The notes: a model not told the origin generated them from the sequence alone. A stretch of 29,378 bases of DNA from an uncultured Candidatus Saccharibacteria bacterium (GCA_964355845.1 CAYHFF010000003.1:1-29378), one strand, 5' to 3'; counted from the first letter of the stretch, positions 26,603 to 29,378 are shown. Numbers and translations: made by a program.

Positions 26603-27433
26603 TTAATTTTCTAATACTTTTCGTTGCTCTTTCGACAAATAATTCCCACTATCGATCACCCCTTTCTTTGTCTGGCTTTCTATATCTTTTCTTGTCCTTC
26701 CAGCTACCCCTCCGCCATCCTTTGCATCTTTATGCAATTCTTTGAATTCTTGGGAATCCCTATCTTGAGTAAACTTGGTCGTTGTTGCTTCTCCAAGCAT
26801 AGTCAAAATCAATTCAATATCATTCATATGATCGCGAAGGTTATGCTCTTTATCAAGCGACTTATGTTTCTTATACCCATTGGCAGTCATGTCAAAAGTA
26901 CCCTTATAGATCTCATCAGTAAGAATGGCAAATTCTTGACCTTTCTTTACTCCTCTATTTTTCCATTCATCTGTGAGTGAATGACGGACATTGATACCTC
27001 GCATTCTCTTATCAATCCATTCCTTTGGATAACCTTTTCTTTCGTATGTTTCCTTTGCACGGTTTATAGCTAGTTCCGGATCTTGGATTTCTTCGAGTCT
27101 TTCAGTTCCAACTCTAGCGAGCCATAGCCTGATCGGTTCTGCCTTAGGAGATGGAATAGATTGGATTATTCTAAATATTCCTTCTAGATTTGACATATTC
27201 TCTTTGCGTTTTTTATCATCTTTCGACATCACTTCAAGTAGGGTACAAATTGTACCCCAGTTGATCGATAGTTCATTATCTCGTTCCCGCATTTTTTTTA
27301 TATATTGTTTAACATCATTAGAGTCTGTAAGTACGAAAACTACATCACTAATAGAAAAATACCATTTCTCATTATGCCAAACCTTTCTAATCTCCCTTCC
27401 CTCAAACAAAGCAATTTCTTTTATTTTTTCCAT
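26603..27433 (-). CDS. Bro-N domain (phage antirepressor-like) DNA-binding protein
   Basis: FEGREIRKVWHNEKWYFSISDVVFVLT, GIFRIIQSIPSPKAEPIRLWLA; C-terminal NLRDHMNDIELI region. Confidence 0.85.
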   Translation of the reverse strand: MEKIKEIALFEGREIRKVWHNEKWYFSISDVVFVLTDSNDVKQYIKKMRERDNELSINWGTICTLLEVMSKDDKKRKENMSNLEGIFRIIQSIPSPKAEPIRLWLARVGTERLEEIQDPELAINRAKETYERKGYPKEWIDKRMRGINVRHSLTDEWKNRGVKKGQEFAILTDEIYKGTFDMTANGYKKHKSLDKEHNLRDHMNDIELILTMLGEATTTKFTQDRDSQEFKELHKDAKDGGGVAGRTRKDIESQTKKGVIDSGNYLSKEQRKVLEN

Positions 27434-27648: not shown

Positions 27649-28290
27649 CTATTCTTGCCCCGATAGATCCGCTATATCATCCGCTACAGTTCCCTGTGTT
27701 GCATCTTTTGGTCCACGCTTTTTAAAATTTCCTCGAGCACCTGATGCTATTTTTCCCATATTCTTTCCAGTAAATCCATTTCTATGACCTATGAGATATT
27801 TACTGACATTTTCATCGAGATCAAAAAAGTCATCTACAACTTCGCGTAATTTCGTTGATGTTGATTTACCAAATGAAACTACTTCTACCTGACAACCCTC
27901 ATTTACCTGTAAATATTCAACCAGTGGAGCAAAGTCTCCATCACCTGTAAGAAGTATCACTGAATCAAGTTTTGGCGCAAGTTTTACAGCATCTATTGCC
28001 ATTCCCACATCCCAATCTGCCTTTTTTGCACCACTACCAAAGATCTGAAGGTCTTTTGTCTTTGTCTCTATTCCCATTTTTGTAAGTGCCTCAAAAAAAG
28101 CTTTTTCATCCCCTGCTTCTGTTGTTATCACATAAGCAACAGCGCGTATGAGAGATCTCTCCCCTACCGCATCTTTTACTATTTGACCAAAATTTACTTT
28201 TGAATGGTATAGATTCTTTGCACTATGATAAATATTCTGTGTATCTATGAAAACTCCAACACGCTGTTCTTTATGTTTTATTACTGACAT
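27649..28290 (-). CDS. NYN domain (LabA/DUF88, PIN-like) ribonuclease
   Basis: VFIDTQNIY, KKADWDVGMAID, LLTGDGDFAPL, VEVVSFGKSTS.KL...DDFFDL; Gly/Lys/Arg-rich tail. Confidence 0.92.
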   Translation of the reverse strand: MSVIKHKEQRVGVFIDTQNIYHSAKNLYHSKVNFGQIVKDAVGERSLIRAVAYVITTEAGDEKAFFEALTKMGIETKTKDLQIFGSGAKKADWDVGMAIDAVKLAPKLDSVILLTGDGDFAPLVEYLQVNEGCQVEVVSFGKSTSTKLREVVDDFFDLDENVSKYLIGHRNGFTGKNMGKIASGARGNFKKRGPKDATQGTVADDIADLSGQE

Positions 28291-28414
28291 ATAAAATTAT
28301 TTACTTATTAACTTAAAATTATTAAAATTAAAAACCACATCACTTATGTTCATCAGACTAAATATTCATATTAAACACCATTACTTAAAACTTATTAAAA
28401 TATACTACGGATAG

Positions 28415-28423
28415 ATTATAGCA
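28415..28423 (-). promoter_or_regulatory. Extended -10 promoter for the NYN gene
   Basis: Perfect TGCTATAAT on minus, 11 nt past the rpsO stop; implies a ~118-nt AT-rich leader. Confidence 0.6.
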
Positions 28424-28434
28424 CATTTTAGAAA

Positions 28435-28704
28435 CTATTTTGCTTTGATTTCCAATTTCTTTGCAATACTTGCATGTCTCTTTGGGGATTTCTTTTTCAA
28501 ATAATTCATATGAGACTGTCTATTTGCAACCATAGCGAGAAGTCCACGTCGTGAATGATTATCTTTCTTATGCTTCTTCAAATGTCCTGCAAGTTCGTCA
28601 ATACGCTTTGTTAAAATTGAAATCTGAACCTCTGGAGAACCAGTGTCCTTATCATGAATTGCTACTGCTTTTATGATATTTGTTTTCTGTCTTGTTGTTA
28701 ACAT
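28435..28704 (-). CDS. rpsO: 30S ribosomal protein S15
   Basis: HDKDTGSPEVQISILTKRI..L..HLKKHKKDNHSRRGLL.MV..R. Confidence 0.98.
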   Translation of the reverse strand: MLTTRQKTNIIKAVAIHDKDTGSPEVQISILTKRIDELAGHLKKHKKDNHSRRGLLAMVANRQSHMNYLKKKSPKRHASIAKKLEIKAK

Positions 28705-28713
28705 GATTGAAAT

Positions 28714-28742
28714 ATATTAGCACGAATGGCTTAAATGTGCAA
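28714..28742 (-). promoter_or_regulatory. rpsO promoter
   Basis: TTGCAC -17 bp- TAATAT with TG extension, 9 nt before ATG. Confidence 0.7.
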
Positions 28743-28761
28743 ATTTTTCCCTGATTTGGGT

Positions 28762-28801
28762 AAAAATCAACCCCTGAGATCTCATACGAGATTCAGGGGT
28801 T
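28762..28801 (-). terminator. Strong hairpin, probable 3' terminator of the upstream structured RNA
   Basis: AACCCCTGA/TCAGGGGTT plus ATCTC/GAGAT (14 bp, one bulge) followed by GAUUUUU on minus; lies just upstream of the independent rpsO promoter. Confidence 0.55.
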
Positions 28802-29344
28802 ATATAGTCGCTAGAAGAATGGTTTCATTTAACCTTTCTGACGACTCATGCGTCGTCGCGCCTTATTTTTTCTATTGAGATCTTTTGTTCAACCAGTGAT
28901 CTGTTTAACTGGTTTTTATTGTTTTTGAGTGCGAGCCCAAACGCTTTTTGCTTAGATCTCTCTTTGCAAAGCTCTTTTGGGTGACTCGTCGGGGGTTCCT
29001 TTTTTTGTTACCTACCTAAGCTTAATTACTTAGGTTTATTTTTTCCAACAAACCTTGGGACGGGAGGGGCTAATAGACCCAGAATCTGCCGACTACGGCG
29101 TTAAAATAAAAGATTCTGAGTTTTGCCCGCGCCGGCGACCTAGGCGGTGGTGGAAAAAGAAAGATTTGGAACAATTACATTAAATGCTTGGAATGTGGGA
29201 ACGGCGGGAGGACTATTCATTTTTTCCTTATCTGCTCTCTTTTTGAGCGGTTTTTTTGTTTTAACCGAAGAAATGACCGAATGAAGCCAAAAAGCGTCCA
29301 AACAGGCACACAATTTCCTCAAAGAGATCTAGTTACCTTTGAAG
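28762..29344 (-). ncRNA. Unclassified large structured RNA candidate (~580 nt; 5' end may extend past the window)
   Basis: At least ten helices, two long-range; GC-rich stems with A-rich linkers on minus; no credible ORF; four helices need G-U pairs that work only on minus, two favour plus. Confidence 0.55.
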
Positions 29345-29378
29345 TAGGACAGTAGAATTAATGCATTAGCAAAAATTA

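Follow-up and report, generated by a model that had tools for sequence, protein, structure and literature searches.

The window analysed here is the whole of contig C3, 29,378 nucleotides (nt) of DNA from an uncultured Candidatus Saccharibacteria bacterium whose genome, G000, amounts to 566 kb in 58 contigs and is 91% complete. The gene rpsO lies on the minus strand of this window at 28435-28704, and the stretch upstream of it, 28760-29325 on the same strand, can be explained as a copy of an undescribed, fast-evolving and largely genus-restricted RNA unit, structured and bearing several small open reading frames (ORFs) in the manner of dual-function RNAs. We regard this explanation as evenly poised between right and wrong. 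A sequence-only reading of the window had proposed an unclassified non-coding RNA at 28762-29344. Its placement upstream of rpsO was confirmed and the stretch itself stood, with the end corrected to about 29325, because 29326-29378 belongs to a repeat. The spacer was also as GC-rich as had been stated, with a GC content of 0.417 over 28762-29325 versus 0.317 for the contig. The following features of the window, most of them listed in the direction of the RNA, are used throughout.

29326-29378, no strand assigned: end of a multicopy repeat, outside the RNA unit, with exact 53-55 nt copies at six contig ends
29311-29325, minus strand: remnant, the distal half, of the 5' motif (TCTTTGAGG...), which reads (G/A/T)TG ATC TTT GAA G in relatives and on contig C52
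29217-29309, minus strand: upstream short ORF of 30 codons with a GTG start, its UGA overlapping the next AUG as AUGA
29234-29248, minus strand: small hairpin GCUC/GAGC ahead of the second start, a place where relatives form a hairpin of other sequence
29140-29220, minus strand: second ORF of 26 codons starting MNSPP (ATG AAT AGT CCT CCC, 29206-29220), with AAGGA before it and TAG at its end
29040-29135, minus strand: GC-rich core with the nested helices 29077-87/29111-21 and 29088-91/29096-99
28979-29004, minus strand: second copy of the start motif in degenerate form (AAAAAGG ... ACG AGU CAC CC), lacking a start codon
28925-28950, minus strand: 3' arm of a long-range helix, pairing with 29288-29313 inside the upstream ORF
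28840-28857, minus strand: hairpin GACGAC/GUCGUC directly upstream of the last start motif
28811-28840, minus strand: GAAAGG and the five-codon mini-ORF MKPFF-stop (ATG 28826-28828, TAG 28811-28813)
28760-28801, minus strand: predicted intrinsic terminator of the unit, a GC-rich stem of 9-14 base pairs (bp) followed by GAUUUUUA
28714-28742, minus strand: promoter of rpsO itself (TTGCAC, 17 nt, TGC-TAATAT), 9 nt before the ATG

Comparison across the genus placed this stretch within a recurring architecture. In all 29 same-genus loci, rpsO and a gene for a XerC/D-like recombinase (xer) are divergent neighbours. In 11 genomes the two genes are 55-86 nt apart, two more genomes have 120-186 nt between them, and in the remaining 16 the spacer reaches 281-815 nt; these 16 relatives together with G000 give 17 long spacers. 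All 17 are GC-richer than their surroundings, and BLAST similarity among them is confined to the spacer ends and the closest species pairs. The long spacers are ordered alike, with a leaderless xer promoter, a promoter facing rpsO, a start motif, a variable body, a hairpin with a U-run, and the rpsO promoter. The promoter facing rpsO is near consensus (CTTGACA-16/17-TGnTAnnnT), being of the TTGACA type in 16 of the 17, and a start codon follows about 10 nt past its -10 box, inside the motif (G/A/T)TG ATC TTT GAA G. At the other end, the hairpin and U-run stand about 45-55 nt before the rpsO ATG in nearly all 17. The relatives' units mostly gave sense folding z-scores of -3 to -6, most of them beat their shuffles, and 11 of the 17 full-length units folded relatively better in sense than in antisense. 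On these grounds the long spacers appear to be diverged homologs, one genus-wide unit with a defined architecture. Over half the species in this Patescibacteria genus have the unit, which is missing from 12 of the 29 genus spacers.

Its reach was probed from several sides. The S15 protein of the window clusters with proteins named 'Patescibacteria group bacterium', and the most widespread S15 sequence, in a search of the S15 cluster for spacer variants, adjoins short spacers without the unit. No database record was found for the exact xer protein. When 60 relatives were searched for DNA similarity, the rpsO promoter block was the one part to match, a 25-nt motif common to C3 and contig C52 was absent from 44 other genus genomes, and exact 19-20-mers sought in JGI metagenomes, GTDB contigs and IMG/VR gave chance matches only, on high-GC or archaeal contigs. 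The homolog check proposed with the sequence-only reading therefore came out in two ways: the body of the unit had no matches at the level of BLAST, and homologs were recovered at the level of motifs, in the genus and at two loci of another family.

These motifs centre on start codons. The region had been described as lacking any credible ORF, and an ORF listing of 28762-29325 yielded none above 60 codons. That description did not hold, in that three short minus-strand frames (29217-29309, 29140-29220 and 28811-28828) match motifs kept in relatives. The second ORF begins with a motif, AAAGG, 4-7 nt, and ATG AAC AGC CCG CCC (MN[S/G]PP), that recurs in about a dozen genus units, lying 99-111 nt past the predicted 5' end in most of them and about 60 nt past it in L063. 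Its variation falls mostly on third codon positions (AAC/AAU, AGC/AGU/GGA/GCA, CCG/CCU/CCC/CCA). Two coding tests, drawn from 12-14 partly related sequences, gave concrete counts: over the first 16 codons in 14 units the second-ORF frame contains 0 stops versus 23 and 14 in the other frames, and the frame that AUGA closes with its UGA stays open through most of the 5' region in 8 units out of 12, each of the other frames in one of 12. In the relative's unit L051 the upstream frame runs unbroken from the start-proximal ATG, and the window's upstream ORF encodes a segment, R-S-F-L-(R-L)-K-Q, that it shares with both L051 and C52 as S-F-L-(G)-K-Q; apart from one 3-nt indel, the differences are synonymous. 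Tandem copies of the start module were present in L052, L050 and G164. The mini-ORF, MKPF[F/Y/T/L]-stop, precedes the terminator in L040 (twice), L045, L054 and G246 as well, and GAAAGG can pair with its codons 3-5. A loose genome-wide search for the mini-ORF pattern showed no enrichment over a reversed control, and the motif is significant only inside units.

Beyond the genus, a strict pattern was run against a sample of 400 genomes. An order-wide pattern search brought out G246, and with its congener G164 it makes up the two homologs from another family, both of which keep the MN[S/G]PP motif. The 1.5 kb inspected to each side of them contained neither rpsO nor xer. The ORFs of G246 (about 47-48 codons, annotated as a hypothetical protein) and G164 (62 codons) share, in frame, the N-terminal motif and an identical C-terminal ASGVISFG around a diverged middle. 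We also observed a 39-40-codon ORF of the form MKT...NSGIFAG-stop, followed by a strong terminator, at L047:1816-2082 and L046:1816-2400 (G002, G035). Its NSGIFAG end resembles ASGVISFG, hinting at one small Gly/Thr-rich peptide family.

How such frames could be translated depends on the lineage. The 16S rRNA of two genus members (L086:2941-3000 and L087:2941-3000) ends in GGAUUAUUUCAAUU rather than GGAUCACCUCCUUA, with the tail GGATTATTTCAATT in place of GGATCACCTCCTTA, and the CCUCC anti-Shine-Dalgarno (anti-SD) sequence is missing. SD-like words upstream of 416 long ORFs of G000 numbered 30, versus 43 in a control window, and were not enriched. A classical SD role for AAAGG before the AUGs was rejected on these two findings. 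A TAnnnT box lies 5-9 nt before the ATG in 47% of the 416 ORFs, and this share of ORFs accordingly looks leaderless. At -20 to -4 of the remaining G000 ORFs the words AAATA, AATAA and TAAAT were 3.8-4.4-fold enriched; A/T-rich words of this kind could be -10 boxes that went unrecognised, or the mark of an altered SD that pairs with UUAUUU. In a lineage without an anti-SD and with many leaderless ORFs, a start-proximal codon and an AUGA overlap make mechanistic sense.

The unit is also a well-folding RNA on paper. The eleven helices listed in the sequence-only reading were all complementary as given; they have 4-11 bp, and none has more than one mismatch. One of them, 29317-24/29337-44, involves the repeat and is spurious, pairing the RNA with foreign repeat DNA. 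Folding was compared with 100 dinucleotide shuffles. The minus strand of 28740-29330 folded at -171 kcal/mol with z = -6.3, and the plus strand gave z = -3.2, so that the shuffle check named beforehand returned a folding advantage. The minus strand, proposed earlier as the functional one, was supported. The G-U wobbles that had been counted for it in four helices were found in two: only two listed helices gain G-U pairs on the minus strand. The long-range pairs were reproduced, with 10 of 10 Watson-Crick pairs for 28941-50/29288-97 and 7 of 8 for 28925-32/29306-13. The former is present in both the minimum-free-energy and the centroid fold, as a single-sequence prediction for which no homolog covers both arms. 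The core at 29040-29135 matches a GC-rich block that relatives carry 60-80 nt past the ATG. The terminator-like end before a separate rpsO promoter was likewise borne out, by a hairpin with a U-run and a leaderless rpsO promoter beyond it. On the plus strand, a consensus scan found three hairpin and T-run sites (28839-28858, 29014-29035 and 29232-29250) versus 0.9 expected, with L007:28-45 listed alongside. We read them as A-run and hairpin modules in the minus-sense RNA; they could insulate xer from antisense transcription or be a mere effect of A-rich linkers.

Two groundwater contigs from ENA, which encode the identical S15, supplied strain variants, and one of them has the 3' 390 nt of the unit unchanged. 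In the other, H43, the hairpin GACGAC/GUCGUC (28840-57) is swapped for an unrelated one, GGUGG-GGAA-CCACC, in the same place; the spacing to the next AUG changes from 4 to 7 nt, and MKPFF-stop is kept with a single UUC to UUU change. Six units, among them C52 (CCGCU/AGCGG), L038 (GGCUC/GAGCC), L039 (AUGGCU/AGCCAU), L051 (GCGCC/GGCGC) and L052 (GAGCU/AGCUC), show a similar hairpin-for-hairpin swap 8-20 nt before the second start. RNA structure and short frames both appear to be maintained.

Several observations weigh against a unit that encodes peptides and works as an RNA. The peptides are barely conserved past the first five or so codons, and the ORFs (16-62 codons) are modestly longer than chance. 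The G246 ORF found only itself as a relative in 5.8 billion proteins and had no match in the ESM Atlas. In the pair L038 and L039 a frame-shift interrupts the first ORF after 6 codons, and the UGA frame is closed; in G000 the start motif of leaderless type is out of frame with that part of the upstream ORF which is conserved. The conserved AAAGG may reflect a motif acting at the RNA level instead of an SD. The 58 predicted pairs compared between L038 and L039 speak for structure, none being broken, eight changed on one side and two doubly changed with compensation, but the test is biased, the fold having been derived from the same two sequences. Finally, the sequencing runs that bear the locus are groundwater DNA metagenomes only.

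Some of the same evidence would suit a purely non-coding structured RNA family of this lineage, in which the AUG-centred motifs (GAAAGG-N-AUGAAC..CCNCC and AUGAARCCNUUC) are RNA elements or protein-binding sites and the frames are incidental. Strong folding with a strand asymmetry, hairpins swapped at fixed positions, and L038/L039 substitutions that keep pairing all fit such a family; so do peptide bodies that are not conserved, an AAAGG conserved without an SD role in a lineage lacking the anti-SD, and the capacity of GAAAGG to pair with CCNUUC of the mini-ORF. The motifs themselves speak for codons, however. They vary with a three-base periodicity (CCN CCN, AAC/AAU, AGC/AGU), frame 0 is depleted of stops, the AUGA overlaps come with an open upstream frame, and the indels between G246 and G164 stay in frame with the C-terminus kept. 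Moreover, there is no Rfam match and no conservation across phyla as in known large RNAs. We consider the purely non-coding family fairly unlikely.

The 5' end of the window copy is broken, and this bears on whether the copy works at all. Exact copies of its last 53-55 nt stand at six contig ends, C3 itself and C7, C19, C30, C31 and C37, in one orientation throughout, and no second group of shared ends was found. The flanks of this repeat (GATCTAGTTACC...) part exactly at GATC, and Logan word depth over 29326-29378 is about 5-10 times that of the flank. The exact copies and the raised depth identify 29326-29378 as the end of a multicopy element that breaks the assembly. The element is probably mobile and specific to this species; most likely there are about three copies, with long, perfect terminal inverted repeats and a palindromic GATC as target. 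The 53-nt repeat had no match in 44 other genus genomes, GTDB contigs or IMG/VR. The interior of the repeat is not in the G000 bin, and about 780 nt of the element lie on a 996-nt Logan contig from run X3. Within the unit, the repeat starts exactly at the GATC of the 5' motif and occupies the place of the promoter and first codon. C3 and C31, which share 55 nt and the palindrome GAGATCTC, may be two flanks of one insertion, though the genes on C31 are unrelated.

The xer gene of G000 was found on contig C52, whose first 124 nt resemble window positions 29200-29325 (C52:51-124 is 83% identical to 29251-29325). C52 can be taken as the syntenic continuation, because it bears xer together with this similarity. 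It has a promoter with a TG extension, TTGACA-16-TATGCT (score 10/12), and it holds a diverged second copy of the 5' region in which the second start is mutated to AUA. C3 and C52 may represent either tandem copies or alleles of two strains. A diversity-generating retroelement was rejected as the source of their similarity, the mismatches not being adenine-specific and neither copy lying in a gene. G246 carries a partial second copy (about 70% identity) of the unit promoter and 5' region at L075 (G246:C37:9928-10025), before an unrelated gene. The promoter and 5' module seems to be duplicated within genomes.

With its promoter and first codon lost to the repeat, the window copy is possibly silent and may be decaying. 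Taken further, the G000 stretch would be a non-functional relic, promoterless and frame-damaged after a mobile insertion or recombination, with its folding and GC content inherited. The replacement of promoter and first codon by the repeat points that way, as do the lack of any promoter-like minus-strand site further upstream in the window, a start motif and an upstream ORF that are out of frame by comparison with L051, a short ORF that stops at TAG where G246 reads on, and the dispensability of a unit absent from 12 of 29 genus spacers. Against it, the terminator and motifs are intact, and two independent groundwater assemblies keep the 3' part, either identical or conservatively changed with mini-ORF and hairpin kept. 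An outward promoter in the repeat interior is also possible, and C3 and C52 may be tandem copies or strain alleles. A relic is, in our judgement, unlikely.

Downstream of the unit, rpsO has its own promoter at 28714-28742. This promoter block is kept in 29 of 29 genus spacers, 6-9 nt before the ATG, whether the unit is present or not, and the rpsO mRNA of the window is taken to be leaderless because only 9 nt separate promoter and ATG. These facts bear on a further possibility, that the unit is a regulatory leader, a ribosome-mediated attenuator of an rpsO-NYN-pnp operon in which translation of the mini-ORF melts the terminator and permits read-through into rpsO. The unit is indeed co-oriented with rpsO, relatives have a strong upstream promoter, and the mini-ORF stop at 28811-28813 is 9 nt from the terminator stem at 28801. 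Yet the leaderless rpsO promoter lies past the terminator in all 29 genomes, unit or none, and the mini-ORF occurs in only about one third of units, with a stop-to-terminator spacing of 26 nt in G246. In addition, the G246 and G164 homologs have no rpsO within the 1.5 kb examined, and the G246 unit faces a convergent terminator. An attenuator is very unlikely on this evidence. Beyond rpsO, a NYN/LabA-like gene (27649-28290, minus strand) is kept in all relatives' loci examined, and it is followed by a gene (26603-27433, minus strand) for a 276-residue protein with weak similarity to DNA-damage-inducible protein D.

The gene on the other side of the spacer raises the question of a cassette-like insertion captured by the neighbouring tyrosine recombinase, either integron-like or exploiting Xer, which would explain patchiness, tandem modules and non-homologous bodies. 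The unit sits at a fixed site next to xer with patchy and variable content and tandem modules, and NF040815, a model of the XerA/integron-integrase type, is the only one whose cut-off the Xer protein passes. The recombinase is, however, a single-copy syntenic housekeeping Xer far under integron-integrase cut-offs, and the units share promoter, motifs and order, as diverged homologs do and unrelated cassettes do not. The terminal hairpin, read by eye, is unlike the R''/R' box layout of attC. We hold a captured cassette to be highly improbable. An integron cassette array in the strict sense was rejected, the XerC/D-like recombinase scoring 123.6 bits against a cut-off of 265 (TIGR02249) and attC being judged by eye.

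The structured multi-small-ORF unit thus remains our preferred explanation, and the architecture, conservation pattern, folding and strand on which it stands are observed directly in the genomes compared. An intact unit, such as L051, would be transcribed from a sigma-70 promoter and initiated in a leaderless or near-leaderless manner, as is usual for this lineage, at a start about 10 nt past the -10 box. The first short ORF would be followed by the MN[S/G]PP ORF through the AUGA overlap, which would imply coupling by termination and reinitiation. A long GC-rich structured body would come next, with the mini-ORF MKPF[F/Y/T/L]-stop in several species, and then the intrinsic terminator. Helices such as the long-range stem between the 5' and 3' parts may gate access to the starts. 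In G000 the rpsO-side copy has lost its promoter and first codon to the multicopy repeat, whose insertion point is the GATC in the 5' motif. That the unit is transcribed and translated, that its ORFs are coupled, and that its peptides or RNA body have any function is inferred from comparative sequence evidence.

A more ambitious proposal, which we put forward tentatively and consider doubtful, is that the spacer hosts a highly expressed, hypervariable dual-function RNA yielding a chain of micro-peptides by leaderless initiation and AUGA reinitiation, with the body acting as an RNA. If true, this would be a new dual-function RNA family and a first window on internal-cistron translation in leaderless-dominated organisms without an anti-SD, and the peptides, which combine a conserved MN[S/G]PP start with variable Gly/Thr-rich tails, could serve a symbiotic lifestyle as diversifying effectors. 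The AUGA-coupled short ORFs would provide a concrete case for SD-independent translation of internal cistrons. As a family with a defined architecture, the unit can be modelled and searched for. It also shows that a GC-rich, well-folding, apparently ORF-free spacer can mislead, and that comparative codon signals point to micro-ORFs missed by gene callers. The biological weight of the window copy is limited, its promoter being cut off by the repeat and the copy perhaps inactive.

No known RNA family accounted for the region, in agreement with the sequence-only reading, which had seen no hallmark of one. The Rfam scan named with that reading gave 0 matches at gathering score for the whole window and 0 for 18 relatives' loci; within 28650-29378, at E <= 10, three sub-threshold chance matches appeared (VrrA, 6A and PK-BYV). 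ARAGORN found no tRNA and no transfer-messenger RNA (tmRNA) in the region, and neither signal recognition particle RNA nor 6S RNA matched there, both covered by the all-family scans only. In G000, contig C4 carries RNase P RNA (124 bits) and contig C30 carries tmRNA (105 bits); rRNA is absent from the bin, and the region matches no rRNA model. A group I or II intron was rejected, having no match at E <= 10 and no reverse transcriptase or homing endonuclease ORF in the region, and GUGUG near the 5' end was rejected as a group II intron mark for want of domain V/VI. A full-text literature search found no description of such a unit.

A likeness to the large ornate RNAs OLE, ROOL and GOLLD had been suggested earlier. 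Like these and the HEARO/omega RNAs, the unit is about 0.55 kb long and combines a raised GC content in an AT-rich genome with many helices and a closing long-range stem. Unlike OLE, ROOL and GOLLD, it has no core shared across orders, its body is beyond BLAST even in one genus, and its conservation is centred on start codons and periodic by codon. The models for OLE (RF01071), ROOL (RF03087), GOLLD (RF01998) and HEARO (RF02033) matched neither the window nor the 18 relatives, and these RNAs were rejected. The suggested likeness fell with the lack of a covariance match, the confinement of relatives to one genus and two other-family loci, and a 5' end broken by the repeat. A conserved promoter, start motifs and terminator around a diverged body would fit a structured small-ORF RNA better than an ornate ribozyme-like RNA.

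Two further systems resemble the unit in part. Long-leader type I toxin mRNAs (hok, tisB, zorO and dinQ) also combine a short ORF in a folded RNA with a long-range 5'-3' helix and a patchy distribution, whereas the unit has several ORFs, not one, and its peptides are rich in Pro, Ser, Thr, Gly and Asn and are not hydrophobic helices. A type I toxin-antitoxin system was rejected, the peptides being polar and Pro-rich, with no opposing promoter in 28400-29378 and no antisense RNA gene seen. The trp, pheA and pyrBI attenuators share a very short ORF just before an intrinsic terminator and a co-oriented downstream operon; they differ in that here the gene after the terminator has its own promoter, no antiterminator was identified, and homologs lie away from rpsO.

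Dual-function small RNAs offer a further comparison. RNAIII of Staphylococcus aureus is 514 nt long and encodes the 26-residue delta-hemolysin, and other dual-function coding small RNAs include SR1/SR1P of Bacillus subtilis and SgrS/SgrT of E. coli. Like them, the unit is restricted to a lineage and evolves fast; as predicted, it would run on its own from promoter to terminator over a few hundred nt, with a candidate short ORF of 26 codons in the 5' third (spanning about nt 106-186 of some 565) and a helix-rich remainder. It differs from them in sequence and in every model compared, in having several ORFs that are apparently AUGA-coupled, and in initiation that would have to be SD-independent; the window copy lacks a promoter. 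RNAIII-type RNAs would be the closest functional analogy to the unit, as an analogy of organisation and not of homology.

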